DNA of 64,000 bases, taken from the IMG/VR virus record IMGVR_UViG_3300025018_000100; one strand, written 5' to 3'. The notes under the pieces are model-generated. The model searched no databases. It was given only the letters and a program-made list of their open reading frames with translations, and was not told the origin of the DNA. The position numbers were made by a program, and so were the translations under genes. The DNA is from a virus. Shown here piece after piece: positions 4,575-59,486 of this stretch (positions are counted from its first letter, which is position 1; each line of letters starts with the position of its first letter).

Positions 4575-5151
4575 AATTGAAAAAACAGAATTAGCTAAAA
4601 AATTAGAAATCAATCAAGGATTAAACTTTAATCTTTGGCAACATCACCCTTTTGATGCTGGATATGATGTGAGAGCTTGTATTGAAAAACCTATTTCCTT
4701 ATATGCTGGAGAAAGAGTTATTATCCCTATTGGGTTGTATATAGAATTAGATAGTCCACATTGGGAAATTCAAGTACGACCACGAAGCGGTCTATCCGCC
4801 AAAAACGGTATTACAATAGTAAATTCTCCGGGTACTATTGATTTTAGTTATAGAGATGAGATTAGAGTTGTTCTGTTAAATACCTCTCATGTAGTTTCTG
4901 AAGAAACGAAGTTTCTTATTAACCCAGGAGATAGAATTGCTCAGCTTTGTTTTAGAAAAGTACCAGAAGTTAATATAGAATACGTTGACGAAATAGCTAA
5001 AACAGTAATCATTAATAAAGAAAGAGACTGGACTAGAGAGGATAGAGGACCTAAAAATAAAAAACAATGGGGACTCGAAGCTACTGGTGAATTAACCGAA
5101 GAACAACAGAAAATAAAAAGAGGTGGATTTGGTAGCTCAGGTATTAAATAA
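4555..5151 (+). CDS. dut: Trimeric dUTPase
   Basis: DAGYD, RPRSGL, NSPGTIDFSYRDEI, GDRIAQL, RGGFGSSG; insertion before motif V. Confidence 0.95.
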   Translation: MNTLDVRIEKTELAKKLEINQGLNFNLWQHHPFDAGYDVRACIEKPISLYAGERVIIPIGLYIELDSPHWEIQVRPRSGLSAKNGITIVNSPGTIDFSYRDEIRVVLLNTSHVVSEETKFLINPGDRIAQLCFRKVPEVNIEYVDEIAKTVIINKERDWTREDRGPKNKKQWGLEATGELTEEQQKIKRGGFGSSGIK

Positions 5152-6072: not shown

Positions 6073-6961
6073 GATACTAGAAGATAGTAATTATAGACCT
6101 ATATTAGACCATGGATTTGTGGGATTAATTGATGTTATGGGTAATGATGCTTCTATAGCTAGAGCCGCTAGAGTTAGTTATGGGGCAGGTACAAAAACGG
6201 TTAATGAAGATAGAGGCTTAATTAGACACTTAATAAGACATAAACATACTAGCCCAATTGAGATGGTAGAATTTAAGTTACATATAAAAATTCCCGTTTT
6301 TGTTATGAGACAACATGTAAGACATAGAACTGCTAGTCTTAATGAATACAGTGGTAGATATAGTGTTATGAGTGAGGAATTTTATATCCCTGAATCTGCT
6401 AATATAGCACCTCAAAGTATTAACAATAAACAAGGTAGAGAAGATGATGGTTTTGATATTGATACAAAACAATTTATTAAAGATATAATAAGTACTCATT
6501 CTGAAGATTCGTATAAAGCGTATGAGATTTTATTAGGACAAATCCCTAATGATGAAAATTATCCTTCTTACAAGACTATAACAGACAAAGGAGGTTTAGC
6601 TAGAGAATTAGCAAGAATGGTGCTACCAGTAAATTATTATACCGAATTATATTGGAAGATAGATTTACACAATCTTATGCATTTCTTAAAATTGAGAATG
6701 GATAGTCATGCACAATATGAGATTAGGGTATTAGCTAATGCTATATATGAACTAGTAAAACCTCATGTTCCTATTGCTATGGAAGCTTATGAAGATTATA
6801 TATTAGATGGTTGTTCTTTTAGTAAACAAGAATTACAAATACTTAGAAAATTCATTTATGTGATGAATATAAATAGAAGTGATGCTAGAGAAATGGCTAA
6901 TGAGTTTATAGAGAATAAAAGAGAATTGGAAGAATTTATAACAAAAATTTATAGAAACTAA
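6056..6961 (+). CDS. thyX: FAD-dependent thymidylate synthase
   Basis: RAARVSY, HTSPIE, RQHVRHRTASLNEYSGRY ThyX signature, ARELARMVLP, LRMDSHAQYEIR. Confidence 0.97.
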   Translation: MTKQSEILEDSNYRPILDHGFVGLIDVMGNDASIARAARVSYGAGTKTVNEDRGLIRHLIRHKHTSPIEMVEFKLHIKIPVFVMRQHVRHRTASLNEYSGRYSVMSEEFYIPESANIAPQSINNKQGREDDGFDIDTKQFIKDIISTHSEDSYKAYEILLGQIPNDENYPSYKTITDKGGLARELARMVLPVNYYTELYWKIDLHNLMHFLKLRMDSHAQYEIRVLANAIYELVKPHVPIAMEAYEDYILDGCSFSKQELQILRKFIYVMNINRSDAREMANEFIENKRELEEFITKIYRN

Positions 6962-9013: not shown

Positions 9014-9280
9014 TTAAAATTTATTAAATGTATTTTGAGCAGAAAATTTCTTGCCCACGCCAGTCTTTTTTGGTCCCTTTGTAAGAGAGCCTGCTCCACC
9101 AGTTACGGGTGCACCGTTACCTGCTGAAGGGTTAACATTGTAGTTTCCTACACCGTTAGACTTCCCGGCACCTGTTAAAGTTTGTGTGCCTTTCTTTGCT
9201 GGTCCTTTCTGTACTCCACCTTTAGGTGTTACAGAATTTACACCATTATTTGATGGGGTACCGCTTGCTGTTTTTGCCAT
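9014..9280 (-). CDS. Gly/Lys/Asn-rich low-complexity basic protein
   Basis: AAGGAG RBS; no acidic residues; internal KGP(A)KK repeat. Confidence 0.7.
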   Translation of the reverse strand: MAKTASGTPSNNGVNSVTPKGGVQKGPAKKGTQTLTGAGKSNGVGNYNVNPSAGNGAPVTGGAGSLTKGPKKTGVGKKFSAQNTFNKF

Positions 9281-9293
9281 AGTAATTATCTCC

Positions 9294-9491
9294 TTATTTA
9301 GAACGACGAAGTCTTGTTTGATTCATTGCAATGGCGATTGCCTGTTTTTTATTAGTAACAGTTTTACCGCTTCCAGACTTTAGTTTGCCTTGTTTAAAGC
9401 TATCTATAGTCGAACCTACTCGTTTACGTTCACTATCTTTAAAATTTAGTAATGATTTTTTCCTTTGTTTCTTTTTAAGATTTTTCATCAT
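9294..9491 (-). CDS. Small basic protein with GKLKSGSG...KQAIAIA motif (DUF6496-like)
   Basis: FKQGKLKSGSGKTVTNKKQAIAIAM; ATG at 9491 just downstream of a promoter. Confidence 0.65.
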   Translation of the reverse strand: MMKNLKKKQRKKSLLNFKDSERKRVGSTIDSFKQGKLKSGSGKTVTNKKQAIAIAMNQTRLRRSK

Positions 9492-9498
9492 ATTATAT

Positions 9499-9527
9499 AT
9501 TATATTAAAAATTAAGCGTAATAGCAA
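9499..9527 (-). promoter_or_regulatory. sigma70-type promoter
   Basis: TTGCTA-17 nt-TATAAT on - strand. Confidence 0.7.
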
Positions 9528-9530
9528 ATA

Positions 9531-10118
9531 TTAATTTTTAATATTATCTATATGATCTTGAATCATATCGTGTAATGTTAAAATAGATGTTTTGGGTATA
9601 TTATATCCTTTTAAATAGGTTTCTAGGATATTCATTAAAGTATCTACTTGATCTACCGCTTCAAAAACTTTTTTCTCGGCCTCTCGTCTATTAAGAAGAC
9701 CTTTAATTACTCTACCATTATCATATTTCCAACGTAATAACTGATTTGCAGCTTCTATATAATCATTAGCATTTAGTTTTCTCAATAAAGTAGAAGTTTC
9801 AAAAGCTGTTTCTCCTACGTTATAAGTAAAACTAACTAATGCATCGAATTGATTTTGATTAATTTCTACATCTACAGAGTCATTAACTGAGGCTTCCGCC
9901 CATTTTACATCATGAGCAAGCCATACACTAGCTTGTTCAGGGGTGCAAGTCATTCCTTTAGTTACACGTTTCCCGTTGATTTTAGTAGTACCGTAACCAA
10001 TAGTCCATACCCCCCCTGTATCTAGGTATGCTTCATCTTCAAATCCTTCCCAGAATTGAATAAATTTTAATCCCTCTAATGAGAGAGACATTCTATTTTT
10101 AAGTCCCATATCCTTCAC
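9531..10118 (-). CDS. Endolysin, GH24 lysozyme (start may be ATG at 10091)
   Basis: FWEG...AYLDTGGVWTIGYGTT catalytic E-D-T, QFDALVSFTYNVG, GLLNRREAE. Confidence 0.95.
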   Translation of the reverse strand: MKDMGLKNRMSLSLEGLKFIQFWEGFEDEAYLDTGGVWTIGYGTTKINGKRVTKGMTCTPEQASVWLAHDVKWAEASVNDSVDVEINQNQFDALVSFTYNVGETAFETSTLLRKLNANDYIEAANQLLRWKYDNGRVIKGLLNRREAEKKVFEAVDQVDTLMNILETYLKGYNIPKTSILTLHDMIQDHIDNIKN

Positions 10119-11085
10119 CTGCCTTCCAATTTTTTATTTCGCCAGTTGTTAAATCTTCTTCTATTTTTTCTCTGCTGCTTATAATCTTTCCGCACTGGCT
10201 TTTGCAGAGTTTGAAACTTCTATCATATCCATGTAAAAAGCTTTGGAGTTTTTCCCAGTAATCTTTCTCAAGTATTTTTTGAATGGGGACATGAAAACCA
10301 TTGAACATATTTTCAAACTTTGTAGGATAATAGAATCGGTCATTAACTTTATCATAATAATGGCCTCCAGTCCAACAGCATCTAAAAACATTACCGTCTG
10401 GAGACACATACCATTTACCCCAGTCATACCAACTACATATAATTTTTTTAGGTAATTTTTCAATCTTTTCCACCTTCTTTGCGTGCACAAAAGGACCGGA
10501 TGTTGGAGCTCTAAAGTCTCTATTAGTTTTTACAGTACTAAAAGTAGTAAAACCCAACTCTTTAGCTCTTTTATGGGCTTCCTCAACTTGATGCTCATTG
10601 TAATCAAATACTATATATTTCCAGTGTACTTTAGGTCTATTAGTAGAAATAACAGCACATGCATTACGTATAACATTCTCGTATTTAGTATTAATTCTAT
10701 ATATATGATGTGTATCTTCTAACCCATCAATATCAAAATTAATTATATCTTTATCAGTAAGTATATTACCTACATCAATCCAATAATCTTCTGAGTGAAT
10801 AGCTCCATTAGTATGAATTATTATTTTAGTATCATGTTCTTTGACATAACTAATAATTTCTCTAAATTCTTTATTCATTATACTATCACCAAAATTACCG
10901 TTAATTACTAACCATTCTAAATTATTTAAAAGTTCACTATTAAATAAAATTTTAAAATTCTCTAAGGTAATAGTATATTTTTTATCGTTAAGATTAATAC
11001 GTAAAGGCTTCATTCTATGACAAGCTGGGCACTGAGCGTTACATCTAAAAGTAAGTTCCGTACTTATTTGTTTATATTTCTTCAT
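10099..11085 (-). CDS. Radical SAM protein with Cys-rich C-terminal (SPASM/twitch-like) domain
   Basis: CNAQCPAC; HTNG; DIDG; C-terminal C...GNVFRCC...CKSQC. Confidence 0.9.
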   Translation of the reverse strand: MKKYKQISTELTFRCNAQCPACHRMKPLRINLNDKKYTITLENFKILFNSELLNNLEWLVINGNFGDSIMNKEFREIISYVKEHDTKIIIHTNGAIHSEDYWIDVGNILTDKDIINFDIDGLEDTHHIYRINTKYENVIRNACAVISTNRPKVHWKYIVFDYNEHQVEEAHKRAKELGFTTFSTVKTNRDFRAPTSGPFVHAKKVEKIEKLPKKIICSWYDWGKWYVSPDGNVFRCCWTGGHYYDKVNDRFYYPTKFENMFNGFHVPIQKILEKDYWEKLQSFLHGYDRSFKLCKSQCGKIISSREKIEEDLTTGEIKNWKAGEGYGT

Positions 11086-12605
11086 TATGGTTTGTAAAAA
11101 GCGTTAATTATAATATACTCCCCCTCTATCATTGTTGTGTCTATAAATTGTATTGTATTATTTCCAGTGTTAAGTACCCACTCATTTTCAGGCTGAGCTA
11201 CCCCTCCTAAAAATATACTAACATACTCTGCACCGGGGATAGTACCTGGTGCACCTACAAAGTAAATATTGCTAGACGTAGAAGTAACTGTATTAGTCCA
11301 AGGAATTACATTAATAGTAGCACCAATAGAAGCAATATTATCTTGTAATACATTTAAATTAGCTGTTAAGCTAAGATAACTGTTGTAATCATTAGCCATA
11401 GCGGCGATATAAGTAGCATAGTCATTAGCTTTATATTCGGTTCCTAGTTGATTATATGTTGAAAAATCATTAGCTTTTGCAGAATTAAAGGTAGTTAAAT
11501 CATTAGCCATAGCTGCTAAATAAGTAACAACGTCATTAGCTCTGTAATCATTAGTTATTTGTGTATAAGTAGTATAATCATTTGCGTTAGCAAAAGTAAA
11601 AGTTATACTATCGTTAGCTTGATAATCTTGTCGTCTAGCTATATCATCAGCGCTTGTTAAAGGTCCTGTACCTAATCTAAATTTACTACCACTACCGCTT
11701 GCGTATACAATATTAGCTAATATTTGGTTATTGCTACCTGTTATTGCTAATCCTGCACCCTCTGCTGTAGCATCAGTACCGTTCCAGTTTACTGCAATAG
11801 TTGTATCTTCGCTAGTAACTGTTTCTGTATTAGCGGTAAAGCTATTTCCTTCAACAGTAACGTTACCTATAATAATAACATCACCCTGAAATATCTTTAG
11901 AGGGGCTGTAAATTCATCAGTCCCAGCTAAAATAGCATTATAAGTTGCAAAATCATTTGCATTAAATGAAGACTGTATATCAGAATATTCTTGACCATCA
12001 AGTAAATCAGCATTTAACCCACTACCTGGACCATCATTACCTTCATGCCAAATTACAGAACTACCACCAGAATAAGGACTAGTTCCGAATTCCCATCTGT
12101 TATTAGGTAAACTATAGGTTAACGCATTAGCGGTTTGTAGTACATTTTCTTTTTTAGGTATTAAATAAACCACCCCTAGATCATTAGTAATAATAGCTAT
12201 ACCGTTAGCAGAAGCACTATTAGCATTTTCTAATACTTCAAGACCTATACTATTAGGGGCTACTCTAATATCTAATGATCCAGTCATTACATCACCAGTT
12301 ACATTAACAAAATCATTAGTTACTTGAAGAAAAGTAGCATAGTCATTTGCAAGAGCAGCTTGATAAGTAAGATAATCATTAGCTTTAGATTGTAAAAACG
12401 TAGCAAAATCATTTGCTCTAAATGCATTAGTAGTAGTACTAACATTACTTTGCACTGCTGATACGTTAGCAGTTTCATCTAGTTTTGTTATGTCTATTGA
12501 ACCGTTAATATAGTGTCTATTTTCAATCTGATTAGATTGAATATTATAGCCCATAATGGTATTACTACTAATTACACTATTAGTTACTTTTGTTAAGTCT
12601 GACAT
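11085..12605 (-). CDS. Tail fibre protein with AND(F/Y) coiled-coil repeats
   Basis: IWHEGNDGPGSGLNADLLDG fibre motif; about a dozen AND-type repeats. Confidence 0.75.
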   Translation of the reverse strand: MSDLTKVTNSVISSNTIMGYNIQSNQIENRHYINGSIDITKLDETANVSAVQSNVSTTTNAFRANDFATFLQSKANDYLTYQAALANDYATFLQVTNDFVNVTGDVMTGSLDIRVAPNSIGLEVLENANSASANGIAIITNDLGVVYLIPKKENVLQTANALTYSLPNNRWEFGTSPYSGGSSVIWHEGNDGPGSGLNADLLDGQEYSDIQSSFNANDFATYNAILAGTDEFTAPLKIFQGDVIIIGNVTVEGNSFTANTETVTSEDTTIAVNWNGTDATAEGAGLAITGSNNQILANIVYASGSGSKFRLGTGPLTSADDIARRQDYQANDSITFTFANANDYTTYTQITNDYRANDVVTYLAAMANDLTTFNSAKANDFSTYNQLGTEYKANDYATYIAAMANDYNSYLSLTANLNVLQDNIASIGATINVIPWTNTVTSTSSNIYFVGAPGTIPGAEYVSIFLGGVAQPENEWVLNTGNNTIQFIDTTMIEGEYIIINAFYKP

Positions 12606-12620
12606 TTATATACCTGAAGA

Positions 12621-13067
12621 TTATTTATCTTCTTCCTCTATTTCAGCAAAAAATTCTGCTAAAAGGTCTTTTTGCTGAACAGGTGTGTTTTCTGTTTCAC
12701 TAAAAAACTCATCAATAAATTTCTGAACCTGTTCATCGTTAGATGGTGGTTTATTGAGGTCATCGTAGCTACCTGCAATAGCTTTATTAGCTATATCATC
12801 ACATATAGTCTGTTCTTCTTTAGTTAAAATTTGAATTGAACCATCTAACCAAGATTTTGTTGTCACATTGACGGGTTGTTCAATATAAATAAAATAAACA
12901 TCCCCATCTAATAACGTAAACCCGTCTTCTATCTCTAAAAATTTATCAAGAGGAAATCCATTTTTATAAAAAGATTTATTTCCTTCTTCATCTTTACCTC
13001 TTAATTCTAATGTAAACCTATTAATACTCTCGTCGAAAGTAATTTTTTTATAACTTATTTCTTTCAT
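12621..13067 (-). CDS. Acidic hypothetical protein (possible fibre chaperone)
   Basis: GAGG RBS; between two fibre genes. Confidence 0.55.
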   Translation of the reverse strand: MKEISYKKITFDESINRFTLELRGKDEEGNKSFYKNGFPLDKFLEIEDGFTLLDGDVYFIYIEQPVNVTTKSWLDGSIQILTKEEQTICDDIANKAIAGSYDDLNKPPSNDEQVQKFIDEFFSETENTPVQQKDLLAEFFAEIEEEDK

Positions 13068-13077
13068 GTTTTTCCTC

Positions 13078-14241
13078 TTAATATTTAATTATATAATTTA
13101 AAGCAGTTACCGGGTTAGTAATTGTATGAGTGTGCCCACTCTCAGGTTGAACATCTGTAAGGACGTTAGTAGTAGTACTATCTTTTGCGCTAGCTGCAAC
13201 AGTTGTAGTAACATTAGTGTGATCGTGACTACCCCCACCACCACTTGTTGTTTCTCCAGAACTGTTAACACTAGTACTTGAAGTAGTTCCTAAAGTCATA
13301 TTACCAGCACCTACTACAGATTTATTTTGTAGATTAGGTATATTAAACGTAGTTGACCCATCACCGACACCGTATATAGTACCAATTAGAGCAAATAAGG
13401 TTGCATATGTGGTTCTATTGATAGCTGTACCATCGCAGATAAACCATCCTACAGGTGCCGAAGACCCCGCAAAAGGTAATACAACTCCGGGAGGTAATAA
13501 ATCACCGAAGCTACCGGATTCACTTTCAAACTTTTTAAACTCAGCAGCTCTAATAGTATAAGGATTATTTAACCCATCAGTTACAGTCAGAGCGCTAGAA
13601 GAGGCATTGTGTGATACCATAGCGCTACTATTAATAGTATTAAAACTAATACTAGTATTACCGAAATCCGAATATAATTGAACAGCAGAAGTTAGATAAG
13701 TATCTTGATTATCGATATCAAACTTTTGTGCTGCGGTCCATACTCTAGAACTATCTGTTACACCTACATTACTACTTAATTTTTGTCCTGTGACTTGTCC
13801 ATTCCCAATCATATTAGTAGTAATACTTCCATTATTTGGAGGTATACCAATATCAACTATAATTCCCGCATTACTAGTTTTCATATATAGTCTAGAATTA
13901 GCGCCAACTGTTTTAAACAATTCTCCTACTTCGTAATCACTGCTAGAGTAGGAGCTTAAATCTTCAATTATTCTACTACCAATACCATTTACAGTGAAGC
14001 TACCAGCTCCCCCTTTAGTAAAGTTGTAATCTTTTATATATAATACACCGTTAGTAGAATTTCTCCATAGTAACCCGTCATCAGGAGTAGTAGCTACACC
14101 TTCTAACAAATAATTAGATGAAGTTGGTCTAGCAGGCCCATAAAAATTAGTAGCTAATGCTTTATGACTATTATTCCAAAAACCTCTAGCTAAGATTAAG
14201 GCTGTTGCGGCTGATGGTGTTGAGAAGGTATTTGAAACCAT
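13078..14241 (-). CDS. Tail fibre with phage tail collar domain
   Basis: PPGVVLPFAGSSAPVGWFICDG...LFALIGTIYGVGDGSTTFNIPNL; HDH and HTH motifs; LNYIIKY end. Confidence 0.9.
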   Translation of the reverse strand: MVSNTFSTPSAATALILARGFWNNSHKALATNFYGPARPTSSNYLLEGVATTPDDGLLWRNSTNGVLYIKDYNFTKGGAGSFTVNGIGSRIIEDLSSYSSSDYEVGELFKTVGANSRLYMKTSNAGIIVDIGIPPNNGSITTNMIGNGQVTGQKLSSNVGVTDSSRVWTAAQKFDIDNQDTYLTSAVQLYSDFGNTSISFNTINSSAMVSHNASSSALTVTDGLNNPYTIRAAEFKKFESESGSFGDLLPPGVVLPFAGSSAPVGWFICDGTAINRTTYATLFALIGTIYGVGDGSTTFNIPNLQNKSVVGAGNMTLGTTSSTSVNSSGETTSGGGGSHDHTNVTTTVAASAKDSTTTNVLTDVQPESGHTHTITNPVTALNYIIKY

Positions 14242-14247
14242 TTTATA

Positions 14248-17200
14248 TTAAACTCCTATTGCTGTTACTGTAACTTCTACACCTGTAACGGCTGATCCTG
14301 TATTGCTATACACATTTATATTTGCCCCATCTTTACTCCATCCAGGAATCAATACAGGTAAGTAGTTATTATCTGAACCTAAAGTCAATGTAATATTAGG
14401 TGGCTCAATAAATTGTCTGTTAGAGAAATCTATTGATTGTGGTGAAGTGGTAACAGTTATTGTTTCTGTATAAATTTTATTTTCTATATCAATGCTATAA
14501 TTAAGTTTATCTAGTAAATAATCTGCCTGATTAGGTTGTGAGTTTTGTACATTAAATCTAACTTGAAACCAACGGAAATTAATAGTAGAGCCACCATAAG
14601 GCTTCCAACCATCATTTGTAACCCCATCAGAGAATACTAGAGCATTAACATTACCGTTCGCATAGTAAGGATTAGCTGTAGTATATCTATACTCTAAGTT
14701 AGTATCAATAATACCGTTTTGTCCTTGGAAAGTTAATTGACCAGTATCATCAATAAATTGTTCTAAATTCACTAACTCATAACTAGTAGAACTATTAATA
14801 TTAGATAATAAATTAGTACCTGTTGGCATACCGTTAGCCCAATAACTATCACCTAGTGCTATAGCATTAGCGTTTATTACTCCAGCTATTAACGCCCAAC
14901 TATTAGCATTGGCATCGTCTCCAACATACTGTCCAGCATTCCAAATAGCATAAACATTTCCTGCATCTCCACCACTTGTGAGAGTACGGAAGTATGAATT
15001 ATATGATACAACAGCAGCCGTAGCATTGTCAAATCCTAAAATATGACCTATTCCCCCGAAATCTACGTCTACTAATACGTTATCTCCTGGAGAAGTTTCT
15101 GTAGCACCTGTTAAAATAATTTCTTTTAAGTCATTAAAAGTAGATGTTATACCCTGAGAACCATTAGCAGTTACAATAATACTTCCAGTAATTACGGAAC
15201 CCACATCTCTGATTTGAGTAGTATAAGTAGCGTTATCATCAGCTAAAAGATCAGTAGGACTACCACTAATAACAGTCCAACCAGAACTAGAACCATTAGC
15301 ATTATCTACAAGTCCAGAAGATGCACTACTTAAGCCACCTAAACTATCTGCAAAACTAGGATAATTATTTTCAAAAGGAGCTTCATTTGGTTGTCCCGTG
15401 ATAATGTTACTTGAAGGTTCGTCTTCACTCCAAGCTTTATATGCATCAATTCTAGCAGGTCTTTGTGTACTAATTGTTAATGTTCTAATTTCTTCACTCT
15501 CATTACTGCTAGTATCTTTAGTCTTAAAGAAATAGGTATAAACTCCATAATTTCCAATACTTAGAGTTACACTATTTGCAGGGGTAGCTACCTTAGCTAC
15601 AGGATCAGCAATAGGCCATTTACTAGCAGCATCAGCTGGGTCTACAATACCTCCAAGTCTTTTAATAATTATTTCATTTAGATCTAAATCAACAACAGTC
15701 CCGTCAGAATTAGTAGGAACCTTCCAAATAAACTTAAGAGTTTGTCCTTCTTGGCCCCCTGCTACTCCTTGAATATTTAAAGGAGGTGCAGATTTACCAA
15801 TTATACTTTGAGAAGCTTCAGCAGTAATACCACGTATACCTTTATTTAAAGGTACAACTCTAACAGTAATACTATTAATAGCAGAAATTCTGCCTCTATC
15901 AAGGTTATTAATAACATAACGAATCTTACCATCTGAGTCAATACCAGAGGCTGGAAGTTTAACAGTATTAAAAGTGGATAAATCTGCGCTAGAAGAGTTT
16001 AATTTGAAACTAACTTCGTAGTCACTAACTTCTTGATCTAAAATAGCATCAAAAGATATTACAGCTCTTACTATAATCCCTTGTGAAGTATCCTTATAAA
16101 GTTGCTCACTGATAGTAAGATTATCTACTTTTTTAATAGGTATTTCATTAATTTGTACTTCTTTTCTAACAAAAGGGCTTCTTCTACCGCTACTATTCAT
16201 ATTTCTAGCTCTAACTATACTAATTCCCGGATTAACGTCTTTCAATACTCTATCCGAAGACAGTGTTACAGGTTTAAAATCTAAGGGAACTTGAATATTG
16301 TATAATTGATTATTAGCTAAGTTAAAGTTACCTGTATACACATTTTCATTGTAATCTAAAGAAAAACTGTTAGCTACTACATCAACATTACCTATTAGAC
16401 CTACGATATCATTACTGATGTTAACAAAAGTTAAGCCGGAAACATTAGCTTTGATATTATCTCTTAATTCTATTTCATAAAAATTAGCAGTAGTCAAATC
16501 AACATTGTATGTAGGACTACTAATATCATAACTTACATTAGCTACAGCATATACGTTTTCTGAATAAAAACTAATATTATCACCAATTTCTACAGCAGGG
16601 GCAGTATAATAGTCTACTCTTGTTTTTAGTAAGCGAGTACCACTACTAATATCTAAGGTGATATTAGATAAATTATCCCAAACCCATGCACCTTTTGGTT
16701 CGATATTACCATCTACCCATACAGTTATTTCATTACTAGTTCTTGGTTTAATTTTAAGATCAAAAGTATTACTTCCTGTAAGGTTTTCAACATTATTTAC
16801 TACTTGTCTGTATTTATTTGAGCCAGTAATATAAAACTTTTTACTAGTAAAAAATCTAGTATCAATAATTTGTGCTAGCTTAGCATAAAAAGGTGGTGTA
16901 GGTAATACATCAAATAGCCCGACTCCTTGAGATTGTTCATTTTCAAAAGTAATAGTATTAGCACTAATATTATAAGATAAAATATTACTACTATATTGAG
17001 TTACGCTAGGATTGTATCCCACAAAATCTAATGCAGCTCCGGTATTAGATTTTTCATTAACAGGTACAGAAATGTAGTCTAAACCTTTTAGTCCATTAAA
17101 AAAGCCATCATTAACCTCTAAAAGGTGGTTAGAAAAATTTTTATCTTCTAACAAATTTAACCCTTCAACATTTAGCAATACATTAGAATCCATATCAATA

Positions 17201-17331
17201 GAAGATATTTCGGTTACTAATATAGGAATAGTTCCGGCTATACCTATAAATCCATTTTTTCCTGTTATAGCAGCAGTGTCTCCATTAGAAACATCACCTA
17301 TACTATTAGCTGTAAAATATAAACTTGCCAT
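14248..17331 (-). CDS. Large tail-tip protein with fibronectin III-like domains (J C-terminal / T5 pb4-like)
   Basis: VRARN.SGRRS, VRVVPLN, IGKSAPPLNI, YFFKTKDTSSNES FN3 patterns; follows hub gene. Confidence 0.7.
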   Translation of the reverse strand: MASLYFTANSIGDVSNGDTAAITGKNGFIGIAGTIPILVTEISSIDMDSNVLLNVEGLNLLEDKNFSNHLLEVNDGFFNGLKGLDYISVPVNEKSNTGAALDFVGYNPSVTQYSSNILSYNISANTITFENEQSQGVGLFDVLPTPPFYAKLAQIIDTRFFTSKKFYITGSNKYRQVVNNVENLTGSNTFDLKIKPRTSNEITVWVDGNIEPKGAWVWDNLSNITLDISSGTRLLKTRVDYYTAPAVEIGDNISFYSENVYAVANVSYDISSPTYNVDLTTANFYEIELRDNIKANVSGLTFVNISNDIVGLIGNVDVVANSFSLDYNENVYTGNFNLANNQLYNIQVPLDFKPVTLSSDRVLKDVNPGISIVRARNMNSSGRRSPFVRKEVQINEIPIKKVDNLTISEQLYKDTSQGIIVRAVISFDAILDQEVSDYEVSFKLNSSSADLSTFNTVKLPASGIDSDGKIRYVINNLDRGRISAINSITVRVVPLNKGIRGITAEASQSIIGKSAPPLNIQGVAGGQEGQTLKFIWKVPTNSDGTVVDLDLNEIIIKRLGGIVDPADAASKWPIADPVAKVATPANSVTLSIGNYGVYTYFFKTKDTSSNESEEIRTLTISTQRPARIDAYKAWSEDEPSSNIITGQPNEAPFENNYPSFADSLGGLSSASSGLVDNANGSSSGWTVISGSPTDLLADDNATYTTQIRDVGSVITGSIIVTANGSQGITSTFNDLKEIILTGATETSPGDNVLVDVDFGGIGHILGFDNATAAVVSYNSYFRTLTSGGDAGNVYAIWNAGQYVGDDANANSWALIAGVINANAIALGDSYWANGMPTGTNLLSNINSSTSYELVNLEQFIDDTGQLTFQGQNGIIDTNLEYRYTTANPYYANGNVNALVFSDGVTNDGWKPYGGSTINFRWFQVRFNVQNSQPNQADYLLDKLNYSIDIENKIYTETITVTTSPQSIDFSNRQFIEPPNITLTLGSDNNYLPVLIPGWSKDGANINVYSNTGSAVTGVEVTVTAIGV

Positions 17332-20306
17332 TAATTAATTCTCTCAATAATTTTAGTAGATGAAGGACTAGCGTATTCAAACTCAGTTCTTAAATCTAGT
17401 GGATATGCCGAAGTATCAGTTCTAGCATCAATTTCTAATTCATATGTTGTAGACCCATCAGCTAACCTTCTAGCTCTTGGTATTACATTTAATATAGGTG
17501 CTGGTGGAGCAATTAATGGACTGATAGTATCTATATATTTAACAGGAATATAATTTATAAGAGTATCACTATCAATATAAACATTAGATACATATTCACT
17601 AGCAGAAATCTGAATTTGGTCATCACCTCTTCTAGTTAATTGATTAACTTTGAATAATTTCTCACCTTGATTGGTATAAAAATTAGATGGGTCAATCTCC
17701 CCAATGGACCATAAGTCTCCTTTTACTGGGACATTATTACTAGTCCAATCTATATTAAAACCAAAAGTACTAAAAGTTTTGGAGTCTGGAATAAATCTTT
17801 GACTTACCGCTACCTCTACAAGATCAATACCAGATTGAGTATTGCCTGTTACATCAGCAGAAAAAGTGTTTGATAATAAATATAAACTTAATCTATCAGA
17901 TTCCATATTAATTACTCGTAATGCGAGAGGTTTCGTATTACTAGTAAATACGCTCTGACTTAATGCAGGAGAGGTAAAATGTTCTAATATAACAGTATCT
18001 TCTCCTATAACAGAATTACTAGCCACCCTTCCTGCGTAACCCCAAGCAGTTCCCGGCATTCTTTGAGATACACTAATAACATCACCGATAGTTAAATTAA
18101 CCGCTTCACTAGGAACGGTGAAATCAATTTTTCTTCTAATATATTTAGTAGATGCAATTAAATATTGAGCAAACCTAATAGCTTGCCCTCGTCTAGTACA
18201 ACCAGTAGCTTCAATTTGTTTTACATTCTCAATTTGATTTAATTCTCTTAAAGATTGAGGATCGTCTACTCGTACTGTTTCTCTCTTATAATGGTTATTA
18301 GGTTCAATATAACTAATTTCTACTCCGGTAATTAATTCTGATTCCTTAATACCGCTAATATTAACACTATCTTTGATAATATTAGCTTCACTGAAGTGAG
18401 CTACAGGAACTTCGTCGGGTAAATCCACATTAAGAGTAATTTTACCCCCACTATAGAATAGTACTCCACGGAAAATAGCAGCTACCTTCTGAATAATATC
18501 AAAAACCTGAGCCTGTGAACTTAATAATAAATCACAAATAAATCTACGCTCTTTAATAGCAATACCTGCATTTAGCCCGATTAATGCCTCGTTTACGGCA
18601 GTAAATCTATTTCTAGGCTTATATCTAAATGTACTGTCACTATATCCTACTACCCCATCAAATCTGCCGGTTTTTGGATTTACAGCATCACAGTATTGAG
18701 CAATTTTATAGAATCTATATTTATCAATATTAGCTTCTGGTATACCTAAACCATAAGTTGAATTAGTTAAAATATCATATAAAATCCAAGCAGGATTCTG
18801 AGTCCAAGCATAACTAAAAGTTCCGTCCCAAAAACCTTTGTAAATTTCTGGGTTATCTTCTGTTAGTACGGTACTACCAGTAGCCTGAAGTCTATATCCA
18901 TTAGCTTGGTAGCTGTTAATATTTGTTCCTGTAGGATCATTTACTACTTCTATTTCTCGCCAATCCACTTGGAAAGTAGAACTATTAAAGTCGGGAATAA
19001 TAGGCTGATTATAATTACTAGGTACCTTACATAACATACCTTTTACAATAGAGGTAAATGTTGGAATACCGCCTCGATATTCTGCAACAGCTTTAATAGC
19101 ATAGCCGATTACAGCTGTTCTTGTGTAAGCTACATCTTCGTGAGTTATTTCATCCCAAGAAATAAACTGAATAGCATCCTGAATTTTAGAACTATCACTG
19201 TCATTACTAGTTTTTTCTATAGTAAATCTATGACCACTAGAGCTTTTTGAAGCTTCTGGAATGGGAATATCGACAGTATATTTATACTGTACGTTAGTTT
19301 TCCCATCAATAGTAATAGGTTTTTCTGCAATTATATTAGAACCCGTATTATCATATACAGTAATCTTAGTAGCTACACTCCCAGAAAAAACATTTCCTTT
19401 ATCATCCATAGTTTGTAAAGCATTAATAACGAATACAAATCTTAGTACATCAATTCTAGACACACTAGTGTTTTGTAATACTACAGCAGCTCTAGGAATA
19501 CCTTCTAAATTACCTTTCTTTAGAGTAACAGGGTTACTTAGAGATTGAGGTACGACTGTTTCTTCACCAAAAATGTTTAGAGGTGTTTGAGTTAATGTAC
19601 CTGTAGTACTATCAGTATAAAAATATTCAGTGTTAATAGTACCATCAGTACTTAGATTAAGTAAGTCATCAATGTTACCATCATTAATTTCAATATCCTG
19701 AGGACCGTTTGGGTTAATTCTATATACAGGACCTTCACTAAGAGCTACAGTAACAAACATAATATCTGTAGAAAACAAATTATTTGGACTTTCTACCCCA
19801 GGGGCTGCAGTAGCACCCTTTCCACCACCTTTATTATGAACTAAAATATTATTAGCTATATAAGTATGATTATTTTCTACGGTTAAATTATACACAATAT
19901 CAACTTCTTTAGTAGTTTTACTAGCAATAGCTGTCATAGTACCAGTTTCTTGTACTAAACAATCTCCCTCTTTAAGAAGGCTTGCAGGTAAAAAGTCACC
20001 ATCTGGGGTTAAAATCCAGTGGTTATCTGTTACTACTAATTCGGTTTTATTCCATAATTTAAATACATGTACAGTATGTTTCTGTTCATGAATGTGAATT
20101 TGTGTTACTCTTTGTTGAGTAAAATTACCTTCACTATCATAACTAGTAACGTAAGTATCAACTCTAATATCTTCAATAGCAAGTTGACCGTTAGCTGTAG
20201 ATATCAAAGTACCTTCAGCGAAGCAACCACCCTTCCCGCCATGAATAAATGGAACTTTTTTATCTGCTATATTGAAATAATATTTAAAATTGTGGTTATT
20301 AAACAT
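17331..20306 (-). CDS. Central tail hub / tip attachment protein J with N-terminal Hint domain
   Basis: LSEGPV, VKGMLCKVPSNY, WTQNPAWILYD, IAQYCD, GCTRRGQAIR typical of lambda J-like proteins. Confidence 0.9.
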   Translation of the reverse strand: MFNNHNFKYYFNIADKKVPFIHGGKGGCFAEGTLISTANGQLAIEDIRVDTYVTSYDSEGNFTQQRVTQIHIHEQKHTVHVFKLWNKTELVVTDNHWILTPDGDFLPASLLKEGDCLVQETGTMTAIASKTTKEVDIVYNLTVENNHTYIANNILVHNKGGGKGATAAPGVESPNNLFSTDIMFVTVALSEGPVYRINPNGPQDIEINDGNIDDLLNLSTDGTINTEYFYTDSTTGTLTQTPLNIFGEETVVPQSLSNPVTLKKGNLEGIPRAAVVLQNTSVSRIDVLRFVFVINALQTMDDKGNVFSGSVATKITVYDNTGSNIIAEKPITIDGKTNVQYKYTVDIPIPEASKSSSGHRFTIEKTSNDSDSSKIQDAIQFISWDEITHEDVAYTRTAVIGYAIKAVAEYRGGIPTFTSIVKGMLCKVPSNYNQPIIPDFNSSTFQVDWREIEVVNDPTGTNINSYQANGYRLQATGSTVLTEDNPEIYKGFWDGTFSYAWTQNPAWILYDILTNSTYGLGIPEANIDKYRFYKIAQYCDAVNPKTGRFDGVVGYSDSTFRYKPRNRFTAVNEALIGLNAGIAIKERRFICDLLLSSQAQVFDIIQKVAAIFRGVLFYSGGKITLNVDLPDEVPVAHFSEANIIKDSVNISGIKESELITGVEISYIEPNNHYKRETVRVDDPQSLRELNQIENVKQIEATGCTRRGQAIRFAQYLIASTKYIRRKIDFTVPSEAVNLTIGDVISVSQRMPGTAWGYAGRVASNSVIGEDTVILEHFTSPALSQSVFTSNTKPLALRVINMESDRLSLYLLSNTFSADVTGNTQSGIDLVEVAVSQRFIPDSKTFSTFGFNIDWTSNNVPVKGDLWSIGEIDPSNFYTNQGEKLFKVNQLTRRGDDQIQISASEYVSNVYIDSDTLINYIPVKYIDTISPLIAPPAPILNVIPRARRLADGSTTYELEIDARTDTSAYPLDLRTEFEYASPSSTKIIERIN
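19833..20225 (-). other. Hint (intein-like) domain, 131 aa, no endonuclease
   Basis: CFAEGTLI start, VTDNH block B, VYNLTVENNHTYIANNILVHN end; +1 residue is Lys. Confidence 0.9.
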
Positions 20307-21075
20307 TAAATTCTTCTCCTACCTTTACTATATCATTTTTACCGTGGTTCGCTGTCTTTACATACCCACTAACAAACTGACCACCTTGTCTATGCATACC
20401 ATAAATTAAGGCTAGACTATTACTACTGTCGGTACTATTAGTTAAACTACCAAACGCATCATTATCTTTTCTGTCTTGAATATCGGTTTCTTGTTCGGGG
20501 GCACTGGGTTTTTTTTGAAATAAAGACATAATACCTCCAAGTATTAGATTAATTCCTATTCCCATCAGTGTTTGTGCAGCATATCCAGCTACTCCAGTAA
20601 GCCCACTATATGCTGCAGCACTTTGAGCAAGAAAACTACCTCCCGCAGCACCTCCCGCAGCTCCTCCAACAGCCGCGCCTCCAGCTGCTCCCCCAGCTGC
20701 CCCAACTGCTCCGCCAGCCGCTAATAAAGCAGGAAGAGCAAAAAAAGCAAACGCAGCTATAGCTGCACCAAGTATAATACCACTTTTACCACCCCCACCA
20801 CCACTAATCGTAGGAACTACATATACTTCAGTAATATATTTTGGATTTTTTATTATAGTTGTTTCGGTAATCAGTTTCTTATCTTGATCTAAAATTAATA
20901 ATAAATCCTTACTAGTTTCGAAGTTACTAATATCAGTAAACTTTAAAATCAATTCTTCAAATGTACTTTTTAAAGCATAACTAAGACCTAAAAAATCAGC
21001 CACATCAAAAGTAAATTCTGATACATTACTTGTGTATTTATGAAGAGAGGTGTGAAAGTGTACTTTTATTTTCAT
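20299..21075 (-). CDS. Tail assembly protein I-like (ubiquitin-like domain + Gly/Ala hydrophobic segment), paralog 2
   Basis: MoaD-like N-terminus ending VVPTISGG; C-terminal AFGSLTNSTDS...IYGMHRQGGQFVSG. Confidence 0.8.
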   Translation of the reverse strand: MKIKVHFHTSLHKYTSNVSEFTFDVADFLGLSYALKSTFEELILKFTDISNFETSKDLLLILDQDKKLITETTIIKNPKYITEVYVVPTISGGGGGKSGIILGAAIAAFAFFALPALLAAGGAVGAAGGAAGGAAVGGAAGGAAGGSFLAQSAAAYSGLTGVAGYAAQTLMGIGINLILGGIMSLFQKKPSAPEQETDIQDRKDNDAFGSLTNSTDSSNSLALIYGMHRQGGQFVSGYVKTANHGKNDIVKVGEEFNV

Positions 21076-22195: not shown

Positions 22196-22611
22196 CTGTA
22201 ATGTCCTTCAGTGTATTGTTTGTAATAGTTACCATATGATCCGATCCAGCTATTTCTATCAATAGTAATTTGAAGTAATTTATTATCTCCAACGTACATT
22301 GCCACATGATTTGGCATATTTGTTGCGCCTAGAGTCATTACTATAATATCAAAAGGCCTCATTTCACCATTATGTATTTCAACCCAGCCATATTTTTCAT
22401 CTCTAAACATATTAAGAGGGTGGTGTAAATCTGGATGATTGTACCAATCATCATCGGTTATATTACAAAAGGTACTTGTACTATACCATATATCAATATC
22501 ATGTTCTTTCTTTAGTACATATTTGATTAAATTACCACAATCAATACCGGTTACTGGGTCTTCCCCTAAATGTTTATAGGGTAATCCTTTATATTTTTCA
22601 TACCAAGTCAT
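22171..22611 (-). CDS. NlpC/P60 peptidase (lambda K C-terminal-like)
   Basis: GLPY...GIDCGNL...NHVAMYVG. Confidence 0.85.
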   Translation of the reverse strand: MTWYEKYKGLPYKHLGEDPVTGIDCGNLIKYVLKKEHDIDIWYSTSTFCNITDDDWYNHPDLHHPLNMFRDEKYGWVEIHNGEMRPFDIIVMTLGATNMPNHVAMYVGDNKLLQITIDRNSWIGSYGNYYKQYTEGHYRWKSFITN

Positions 22612-57069: not shown

Positions 57070-57386
57070 TATGATTTGCTTATACGTTTGCTCATACGTT
57101 TGCTCGGAGAGCAACAACGCCGGTAACGCTGAGTAAATTTTATAACTACTATAGGTAAATACTTGTTATTCCTTCAAGGAATAGTTAAACAGTCTTAGAT
57201 TTTTTGGAAAAAATCCCAAATAAAGTTCCTGGGCAGGGGACACATGAAAGTCAAGGTTGTATAGTCTCCATAACCGCCCCCCATGGTTGTATATTATTTC
57301 TATAGAAATATAAAAATAATGCTTGCATTAATAAGATTAAGTGTTATCTTACTTATAGACAATAACCAACGGAAAAGGACTGAAAA

Positions 57387-57704
57387 ATGTTGCAAAGCAA
57401 AACGATTTACCTGAATGACACAACAAAGAAAGATGACAATACCGTGATTTCTTTCGCATATACCGTCCTGGGAGTGGCTCATGGCTCGGTCGCGTTCTTT
57501 GCCCTATCACTTGCGGCGCTTATTCCAGGGCAAGCTATCCCTTTCTTGTTGATTACCTTGGCGGCGGCGCTAATGTCCTATTGGTTCCTGCTGCTGAAAG
57601 ATGGTTTGGAACAAGAAAAGAAACCTTTTTATTCTAAGAAAGGGGGGTTGCATTTTTTCCGGGTCGGTCGGTACGGTGCAACGTTCTACCGCACAAAAAA
57701 ATAA
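57387..57704 (+). CDS. Two-TM membrane protein, higher GC, own promoter and terminator
   Basis: TTGCAT...TATCTT promoter upstream, AAGGA RBS, hydrophobic core. Confidence 0.7.
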   Translation: MLQSKTIYLNDTTKKDDNTVISFAYTVLGVAHGSVAFFALSLAALIPGQAIPFLLITLAAALMSYWFLLLKDGLEQEKKPFYSKKGGLHFFRVGRYGATFYRTKK

Positions 57705-57710
57705 CAACGT

Positions 57711-57738
57711 AAAAGGGGAAGCAATTGCTTCCCCTTTT
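57711..57738. terminator. Bidirectional intrinsic terminator
   Basis: AAAAGGGGAAGCAATTGCTTCCCCTTTT. Confidence 0.85.
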
Positions 57739-57893
57739 CTTTATTCTTATTCTACACAAAACTTGTGTATTAGCACCGCCAGGAAACCTTCTCCTACCCC
57801 TGTAGGGTAACACGGTTTTACCATACTTGTAAAGCTAATTTTATTTCGTTGTTTATATTATTTGAGAAATATTATTAGCCAATAAAGGCACCG

Positions 57894-57908
57894 GAACAAA
57901 ACGTGAAC
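57894..57908 (+). promoter_or_regulatory. Alphaproteobacterial LexA box
   Basis: GAAC-AAAACGT-GAAC (GAAC-N7-GAAC); near match GAAC-N7-AAAC at 57984-57998. Confidence 0.55.
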
Positions 57909-57928
57909 AAACAGGGTGCAGCGCAATA

Positions 57929-57962
57929 TGGCATGATAATTGCATAAGCAATTTATATGCCA
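57929..57962. promoter_or_regulatory. Two head-to-head sigma54 (-24/-12) sites forming an inverted repeat
   Basis: TGGCATGATAATTGCA (+) and TGGCATATAAATTGCT (-), both GG-N10-GC. Confidence 0.65.
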
Positions 57963-58198
57963 TTAAGAATAGATCGCATTAGAGAACAAAAGATAAACAT
58001 AAAGCATTACTAAACTATAGGAATAAGCCTATTTTACACAAAAAATATGGGTTAAAATGAATAGAATATAGATAAACCCAAACTATGCTAAGAATAGATT
58101 AACCCATTAATTTTATTAAATAATATTTTAGTGTTTACATACCTATTAAATGCCTCTATTATAATGCCAGGTAAACAAAACTGGAAAGGACCAAAACA

Positions 58199-58849
58199 AT
58201 GGCAATTAAGAGCAACCACGCATTTTCCCGCACATTACGTAATCAATTGCGAGAAACCTTTAACAACGCGCAATGCGTTTATAAGGATATCCAGGACCAA
58301 GTACCGGCGCTCATTACCTTAGACAATGGGGAATTTGACCATATACTAGCGCGGGAATTTGCCTATTTGGAAAAGGATATGCAAGCGGCGATTAAGAATG
58401 CCGGTTATCCAAAAACACTTTGGCAAAATTTCGCTATCAATAGCCATGTTAATTGCGCGCGTGTTAGCGCGTCTGGGAATTGGCTAAAAGGACAACAAGA
58501 AAAGTCTTTGATGGTTATCAAACAAGATAACGCGGTGATTGTTCACGCCATGCGATATTTTGCGCGTGTATGGGGTCTTAACGGGAAAAGAAAAATTGTT
58601 CTCAAATCCGTCGCCAACAAAACAAAACATCTTGCAATCAAAGCAAACGAATATGAAGCGCTTTCCGTTCGTGCGGTACGCTTGGAACATACTAAAGGGG
58701 ATTTAGATAAATTTAGTATGTCTCACAATTGGATTAAAGAGGGGAAGGAATATAAAAGGCAAATTTTAAAATTCGGGGATGAAACTCCAGAAGCGAAAGC
58801 GCATTTAAAGAAAATGAAACAGACCATAAAGGAATACATGGTTTACTGA
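58199..58849 (+). CDS. HNH-like protein, higher GC
   Basis: EFDHIL...N....S..GNWLKG; AAGGA RBS; TTTACA-17 nt-TATTAT promoter. Confidence 0.55.
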   Translation: MAIKSNHAFSRTLRNQLRETFNNAQCVYKDIQDQVPALITLDNGEFDHILAREFAYLEKDMQAAIKNAGYPKTLWQNFAINSHVNCARVSASGNWLKGQQEKSLMVIKQDNAVIVHAMRYFARVWGLNGKRKIVLKSVANKTKHLAIKANEYEALSVRAVRLEHTKGDLDKFSMSHNWIKEGKEYKRQILKFGDETPEAKAHLKKMKQTIKEYMVY

Positions 58850-58886: not shown

Positions 58887-59019
58887 CTGAATTGCGAATG
58901 ATTATCATTCCTGACTGAATTGCGAATGATTATCATTCCTGACTGAATTGCGAATGATTATCATTCCTGACTGAATTGCGAATGATTATCATTCCTGACT
59001 GAATTGCGAATGATTATCA
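58887..59019. repeat. Tandem array, 4.75 x 28 bp, each unit containing a Fur-box core
   Basis: Unit CTGAATTGCGAATGATTATCATTCCTGA at 58887, 58915, 58943, 58971, partial at 58999; AATGAT-T-ATCATT palindrome. Confidence 0.95.
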
Positions 59020-59479: not shown

Positions 59480-59486
59480 GTGTATA

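Follow-up and report, generated by a model that had tools for sequence, protein, structure and literature searches.

Facing sigma54-type boxes beside a LexA-type box in untranslated pre-early DNA of a distant T5-like phage: a possible docking module for host factors

What are sequences resembling the binding sites of host regulators doing in an interval of phage DNA with no apparent coding function? The question is raised by positions 57740–58198 of a 64,000-nt stretch (GC ~33%) of the virus record IMGVR_UViG_3300025018_000100, the whole of which is here termed the window. An initial annotation had described this interval as free of open reading frames (ORFs) and its motifs as a landing pad for host DNA-binding proteins; on re-checking the sequence all of these motifs were found where it had placed them, and no plus-strand ORF of at least 30 aa occurs in 57811–58130. 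The answer reached below, held at slightly less than even confidence, is that the interval may be a host-factor docking module of pre-early DNA, of the type of the T5 iss, working together with a nearby Fur-box-like array.

Judging from its proteins, the window derives from a distant T5-like phage. TerL, PolA and the portal protein share 33–43% amino acid identity with Demerecviridae (T5-like) proteins, and the window comprises a long minus-strand block (9.5–52.3 kb) encoding portal, TerL, tail and fibre proteins, plus-strand genes for FEN, ThyX and glycosyltransferases at 1–8.8 kb, and small plus-strand genes after this late block (52.6–64 kb). The same DNA is contained in a 200,719-bp metagenome contig (ena:ERZ27293386:k141_579368), on which T5_Terminase_small was called and a Pfam Phage_T5_A2 protein is encoded ~10 kb downstream of the interval. 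Combined with the Demerecviridae-like TerL, PolA and portal, these two proteins suggest that the DNA from 52.6 kb onward is the counterpart of T5 pre-early, first-step-transfer DNA. The interval is located ~5.3 kb into this pre-early block of at least 16 kb, whereas the T5 iss is found at the block end. Further along, from window position 59480 onward (L003, the ENA contig, 11190–20460), twelve copies of a ~110-nt module occur, one before each small pre-early gene, consisting of a GC hairpin (CCCGCCGTAGGCGGG) set between inverted arms and, after these, a promoter of the TTGACA type. Another region of the record (87.7–123.7 kb; L198, L199 and L200) encodes a class II RNR (1438 aa) and a helicase (828 aa), both with intein and LAGLIDADG domains, as well as an NAD-type ligase, UvdE and a radical SAM protein.

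The interval itself is AT-rich (31% GC); in Rfam it gave only sub-threshold matches to the terminator, and no tRNAs were found. Searches for its relatives through 216-aa, 105-aa, kinase-like and HslV-like proteins returned nothing or an unrelated contig, homologues of a 211-aa neighbour belong to a different phage in which the motifs are absent, and a scan for relatives with the core of the Fur-like array yielded single boxes only. A diverged relative of the interval was not found in the collections searched, and the copies in L003 and L004 are identical across it. To its left lies a 105-aa ORF (57387–57704) with a ribosome-binding site, two hydrophobic segments (two-TM) and its own terminator, which is missing from the gene calls of the public collection; small two-TM pre-early proteins are also encoded by T5 (T5.005, T5.013). 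A second untranslated block (57075–57105 and 57150–57310) contains 2.6 copies of TTTGCTCATACG, the short perfect palindromes ATTCCTT-CA-AGGAAT and GATTTTTT-GG-AAAAAATC, a 12-nt repeat at 30-bp spacing, and the word ATAACCGCCC, which is present twice in the iss region of Salmonella phage HMD-P4. The features of the interval and its surroundings are as follows, sigma54-type boxes being scored with a matrix built from 169 phage sigma54-like sites (training scores 11.7–29.3 bits).

57711–57738, unstranded: perfect 14+14 palindromic hairpin, terminator of the 105-aa ORF, at the left edge of the untranslated interval
57894–57908, plus strand: GAAC-N7-GAAC, an alphaproteobacterial-type LexA box, ending 20 nt before the sigma54-type pair
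57929–57943, plus strand: sigma54-type -24/-12 box TGGCATGATAATTGC, 21.8 bits, 34th percentile of the 169 phage sites
57948–57962, minus strand: sigma54-type -24/-12 box TGGCATATAAATTGC, facing the first, 17.9 bits, 10th percentile of the 169 phage sites
57964–57974, plus strand: TAAGAATAGAT, a two-copy repeat with an exact second copy at 58089–58099
57984–57998, plus strand: degenerate copy GAAC-N7-AAAC, starting 21 nt after the pair
58047–58055 and 58099–58107, unstranded: 9-bp inverted repeat ATGGGTTAA/TTAACCCAT, its arms separated by 43 nt, no more than expected by chance
58134–58162, plus strand: sigma70-type promoter TTTACA-N17-TATTAT of the 216-aa gene, at the right edge of the interval
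58199–58849, plus strand: orphan 216-aa gene with weak HNH/GmrSD_C-like features and its own sigma70-type promoter and terminator
58887–59019, plus strand: Fur-box-like array (28 bp x 4.75, 7-1-7 palindrome), beyond the terminator of the 216-aa gene and 0.9 kb from the interval

The consensus of the sigma54 (RpoN) -24/-12 element is YTGGCACG-N4-TTGCW, and sigma54 holoenzyme forms stable closed complexes in which the DNA is not opened without an AAA+ activator. Both arms of the pair in the interval read TGGCAT-N5-TTGC, together spanning 34 bp and leaving 4 bp between their TTGC cores, or 2 bp when TTGCW is counted, and the GG-N10-GC geometry is exact in both half-sites, within TGGCA-N6-TTGC. 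This arrangement is clearly non-random. Exact TGGCA-N6-TTGC occurs three times in the window against 0.34 expected, a count reached by none of 100 shuffles, and the facing pair taken as a single pattern occurs once against 0.00 expected. The two head-to-head GG-N10-GC sites of the initial annotation are real. No other site in the window exceeds 12 bits on the sigma54 matrix, an intragenic match at 22312 scoring 11.8. Against the extended consensus YTGGCAYR-N4-TTGCW, both half-sites match at R and W; both have A before TGG, as opposed to T in 127 of the 169 phage sites.

The facing pair also recurs in uncultured phages. A scan of IMG/VR for TGGCAT-N5-TTGC followed, after a gap of 2–8 nt, by the mirrored box identified at least 75 stretches, compared with a single one for a control with N6 in both arms. 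When the N5 spacers of one arm and the other are compared, 75 of 83 instances show agreement at 0–2 of 5 positions (peaking at 1–2 of 5), which is the chance level; what is under selection is therefore the TGGCAT block, the TTGC block and the distance between them, not a hairpin. Outside the pairs, the same 75 loci (629 kb) contain 203 single TGGCA[CT]-N5-TTGC boxes, as against 2–7 at any other spacing. The flanks of the phage sites are likewise constrained, with T before TGG in 127, R after TGGCAY in 159 and W after TTGC in 159 of 169 cases, and by these counts the flanking bases are those of the textbook sigma54 consensus. The window pair, whose spacers agree at 2 of 5 positions, whose gap is 4 nt and which lies in untranslated DNA, fits the recurrent facing-pair element as defined here; unlike the 75 recurrent loci, the window contains no further single sigma54-type box above 12 bits near the pair. 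Dense arrays of such boxes are exemplified, among IMG/VR loci L005–L079, by L049 (1120–1310), L020 (6570–6760), L071 (290–640) and L073, and no description of phage sigma54 site arrays was found in the literature searched. Bacterial genomes contributed 115 matching stretches, and of the 80 examined about three quarters belong to a single Leptospira repeat family, several more being plain, scattered hairpins. In saprophytic Leptospira (L081–L160) this is a highly repeated element, with many copies per contig ~1 kb apart, that has the same facing TGGCAT-N5-TTGC / GCAA-N5-ATGCCA core and non-complementary spacers.

In these other phages the pair falls outside any ORF of at least 100 aa in 74 of 83 cases, within long untranslated stretches, and boxes are typically separated from ORF starts by 200–500 nt, showing neither an orientation bias nor a preferred distance, a distribution on which ordinary gene-proximal promoters were rejected for the wider class. 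Boxes often adjoin terS-like genes, in complete records they are clustered (21 of 22 boxes within 22 kb of a 335-kb phage), and perfect DnaA boxes are found within 300 nt of sigma54-type boxes in about five lineages. Neither PF00158 (activator) nor PF04552 (sigma54 DNA-binding) was detected in five near-complete records, and a phage-encoded sigma54 or activator was rejected on this basis.

The flanking LexA-type boxes present a different statistical picture. GAAC-N7-GAAC (or GTTC-N7-GTTC) is the LexA (SOS) box of Alphaproteobacteria, and the exact copy and the near match noted by the initial annotation are both present, the latter (GAAC-N7-AAAC) within a 21-nt direct repeat that shares 76% identity with 57894–57914. 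Their abundance carries no signal, since the window has a single GAAC-N7-GAAC where 0.99 are expected (at least one in 57 of 100 shuffles), and there is again only one, against 1.7 expected, in 93.5 kb of phage, the part of the genome that could be assembled for such counts. No promoter-like site overlaps it. By analogy with the cultured T5-like phages described below, it is nonetheless suggestive that the box may be non-random through its position beside the sigma54-type pair: from the observed density, the chance that an exact copy falls no more than 40 nt from the pair is estimated post hoc at ~0.002, or at ~0.01 once several known LexA-box types are allowed. Overall, a LexA reading of the GAAC box falls somewhat short of an even chance, and would gain if the host were an alphaproteobacterium. 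The remaining repeats are less telling: the inverted repeat reported near 58048–58106 exists, at 58047–58107, and when the 459-bp interval is dinucleotide-shuffled, a repeat of this length arises in 28% of cases. A single DnaA-like TTWTNCACA lies in the interval, at 58032, the window total being at chance, and the interval holds neither DnaA-box pairs nor any DnaA enrichment. Thus, when the motifs are compared with shuffled sequence, as the annotation had proposed, the facing pair stands out, and the GAAC box and the inverted repeat do not.

An alphaproteobacterial host had also been proposed on the strength of the GAAC box, and this part of the earlier view is not supported, since a motif at chance by count cannot alone indicate such a host. 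The E. coli-type LexA box CTGT-N8-ACAG is missing from the 93.5 kb, which fits a host outside the Gammaproteobacteria; the closest cultured relatives, though, infect Gammaproteobacteria, and are related at only 33–43% amino acid identity. Counts of GANTC, GATC and CtrA boxes in the 93.5 kb were uninformative on the host, and a search for it with ThyX returned a single match, on a short contig binned in a Planctomycetota MAG.

How, then, might the pair function? One possibility, considered unlikely but of some weight, is that the pair alone is functional as a compact bidirectional enhancer-dependent promoter served by a host activator, the GAAC boxes being fortuitous, which their count at chance would allow. 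By textbook geometry, from which both the start positions and the footprint overlap are derived, transcription would begin at ~57955 rightward and ~57936 leftward, 19–20 bp apart. The sequence geometry indeed fits textbook -24/-12 spacing, in other phages 23 of 53 pairs lie between divergent genes, an enrichment over the 13% background, and the hairpin at 57711–57738 could end a leftward RNA of ~200 nt. In the window, however, the flanking genes are arranged in tandem (both plus strand) with no coding sequence to the left for such an RNA to express, and the rightward 216-aa gene has its own sigma70 promoter, so that no gene lies within normal reach of the pair without a promoter of its own. 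The pair is poorly placed for an ordinary gene promoter, which bears out the doubt originally voiced about facing sigma54 sites acting in this manner. In addition, the wider class lacks a preferred distance or orientation relative to ORF starts, an activator gene is absent from the five records, and two holoenzymes would be mutually exclusive.

It is less probable still, indeed quite improbable, that the palindrome has nothing to do with sigma54, and serves instead as an operator bound by a dimeric protein of phage or host origin, or as a DNA or RNA hairpin acting as a processing or pause signal. The pair does form an imperfect palindrome with 16-nt arms matching at 13 of 16 positions, its RNA fold is stable (-15.2 kcal/mol, z = -2.8), and the A preceding TGG in both half-sites departs from the T or C of sigma54 elements. 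Yet across 83 instances the arm spacers agree at chance only, single asymmetric boxes outnumber pairs and need the exact N5 spacing, the flanking preferences (T at -1, R at +6, W at +15) agree with sigma54, and no U-tract follows the hairpin on either strand. That the interval has no function, as a spacer or what is left of decayed genes, with incidental motifs, is the least probable of these alternatives, and its AT-richness, the chance level of most motifs and the orphan genes of a fast-turnover region have to be set against a pair with 0.00 expected occurrences that belongs to a class in 75:1 excess over its spacing control.

The favoured reading, a host-factor docking module, draws on what lies beyond the interval and on cultured relatives of the phage. 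The Fur array that had been placed ~1 kb away is indeed there, at a distance of 0.9 kb, and a blastn search with it led to an untranslated region of phage HMD-P4; its 19–20 nt core (58893–58995) is common to T5-type iss repeats (HMD-P4, T5). In the 200-kb ENA contig (L003 10681–10737) the array is 84 bp (3 units) shorter than the 4.75 units of the window, a difference that is either real copy-number variation or an assembly collapse. The 216-aa protein encoded between the interval and the array has no Pfam match and no homologues among 5.8 billion proteins; the Atlas offered weak HNH/GmrSD_C structure look-alikes, and a DH...N...N pattern is discernible by eye in its sequence. The gene may be an insertion splitting one untranslated region, perhaps encoding a homing-type nuclease like T5 hegG, and if gene, promoter and terminator did arrive in this way, then the interval and the Fur-like array would once have formed one untranslated region.

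Precedent for such a region is provided by T5 itself. In the T5 genome (L197, NC_005859) the annotated iss (9140–10149) holds a perfect 20-nt E. coli SOS box at 9409–9428 (0.00 expected), followed by DnaA boxes and then by a Fur-like array at 9552–9715. T5 RR2 (6120–6230) also carries a canonical E. coli LexA box beside DnaA boxes. The pattern extends to other cultured T5-like phages, since ACTGTAT-N4-ATACAG with at most one mismatch is found in all five of T5, Pontus, Kamaji, My1 and KEY, and a reversed control gave none. In each of the five, DnaA boxes (TTATCCACA) accompany the LexA boxes. For T5, Pontus and My1 each LexA-box coordinate recurs in the second terminal repeat, and for T5, Pontus and KEY the boxes fall in unannotated DNA; in the four records checked, LexA boxes appear confined to untranslated portions of the terminal repeats. 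T5, HMD-P4, Kamaji and KEY have no sigma54-type boxes. In Vibrio phage Pontus (Thalassavirus), both distinct sigma54 boxes of the genome are located in the two untranslated blocks of the terminal repeat (L209, 600–830 and 4380–4740), with none elsewhere. The first (678–692) has a DnaA box 11 nt on and a LexA-like box 20 nt on, followed by more DnaA boxes and a perfect LexA box, and the second (at 4723) has a LexA-like box 10 nt upstream. The untranslated repeat regions of T5 and their DnaA boxes, among them paired DnaA boxes 3 bp apart in IRD'-spacer-IRC', have been described, as has the splitting of RR1 and RR2 by hegG, in an account that does not mention LexA or Fur for the repeat regions (Davison, bioRxiv 10.1101/866236). 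No report of LexA or Fur boxes in the T5 iss was found in the literature searched. The original proposal of a landing pad on first-entering DNA has thus acquired a precedent, comprising the LexA and DnaA boxes of five cultured phages, the Fur-like array of T5 and the sigma54 boxes of Pontus.

If the interval is a docking module, its core would be the facing pair, predicted to bind host sigma54 RNA polymerase holoenzyme. Only one holoenzyme would be accommodated at a time, in either orientation, since the two footprints would overlap when the -12 elements are 4 bp apart. The pair is flanked at 20–21 nt by the GAAC-N7-GAAC LexA-type box and its degenerate copy, and would be assisted by the Fur-box-like array 0.9 kb downstream, beyond the possibly inserted HNH-like gene. 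Host proteins would load on the DNA soon after entry to form a stable nucleoprotein complex for which no transcription is needed. The T5 iss suggests by analogy what this complex would do: pause or anchor the DNA on its way in, give it order, or act as a gate on pre-early transcription. Host-protein binding, the overlap of sigma54 footprints and any role in DNA entry are inferred, and even T5 offers no proof of what such sites do. Several points weigh against the docking module, namely the lack of homology between 57740–58198 and the T5 and HMD-P4 repeats, the lack of DnaA-box pairs and, in the collections searched, of a diverged relative that could show conservation, the presence of a single module, its mid-block site, the GAAC count at chance, and the A before TGG.

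A broader proposition, which must be regarded as doubtful, is that phages widely equip their untranslated DNA with sites for host proteins (sigma54 holoenzyme, LexA, DnaA, Fur), to dock or trap these proteins without transcription. In T5-like phages such sites would make up the machinery for handling first-entering DNA, and in many uncultured phages they would take the form of dense arrays and facing pairs that capture closed-complex holoenzyme. Were this true, a captured sigma54 complex might act as an anchor or a roadblock, or might, by titration, deprive host stress and defence operons of sigma54. The stop and restart of T5 DNA transfer has been an open problem for decades, for which DnaA boxes are the only published site-level idea found (Davison, bioRxiv 10.1101/866236). 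LexA boxes in all five T5-like phages, Fur-like arrays in T5-type phages and sigma54 boxes in Pontus and the window phage would add named host-protein candidates. Beyond the T5-like phages, the 75:1 excess of facing boxes, together with hundreds of single boxes not placed as promoters, suggests that phages exploit sigma54 recognition in a way that has gone unrecognised.

Comparison with known systems places these elements in context. With sigma54 promoters the pair shares the GG-N10-GC geometry, the TGGCA and TTGC cores, R after TGGCAY and W after TTGC. It differs from them in that its boxes point towards each other across a 4-bp gap, so that joint occupancy would be excluded by the inferred overlap of footprints, in having no identified upstream activator site, activator gene or gene placed to be driven, and in having A rather than Y before TGG. 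With the alphaproteobacterial LexA box the window shares the exact direct-repeat consensus at 57894–57908, although here it lies over no SOS-type gene promoter, its frequency is at chance, and the consensus may not be that of the host.

The likeness to the T5 repeat regions and iss is one of organisation. Both are untranslated DNA in the pre-early, first-entering block, packed with short repeats and palindromes, and both carry consensus sites for host DNA-binding proteins, binding in the window being a prediction; the nearby Fur-like array shares the 19–20 nt core, and the HNH-type gene may split the window region as hegG splits RR1 and RR2. In contrast, 57740–58198 has no sequence homology to the T5 and HMD-P4 terminal repeats, which are matched by the Fur-like core at 58893–58995 alone, and the facing sigma54 pair of the window has no counterpart in T5 or HMD-P4. 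The window lacks DnaA-box pairs and an IRC-spacer-IRD / IRD'-spacer-IRC' partner module, has a LexA-type box of the form GAAC-N7-GAAC in place of the CTGT-N8-ACAG of T5, and contains one such module, as compared with two or three LexA-box sites per repeat in the cultured T5-like phages; its interval is positioned mid-block, and the T5 iss at the repeat end. The Pontus blocks, although their sigma54 boxes are single, their LexA boxes gamma-type and their perfect DnaA boxes interleaved, share with the window a placement of sigma54-type boxes close to LexA boxes (10–20 nt in Pontus, 20–21 nt in the window) within untranslated pre-early DNA.
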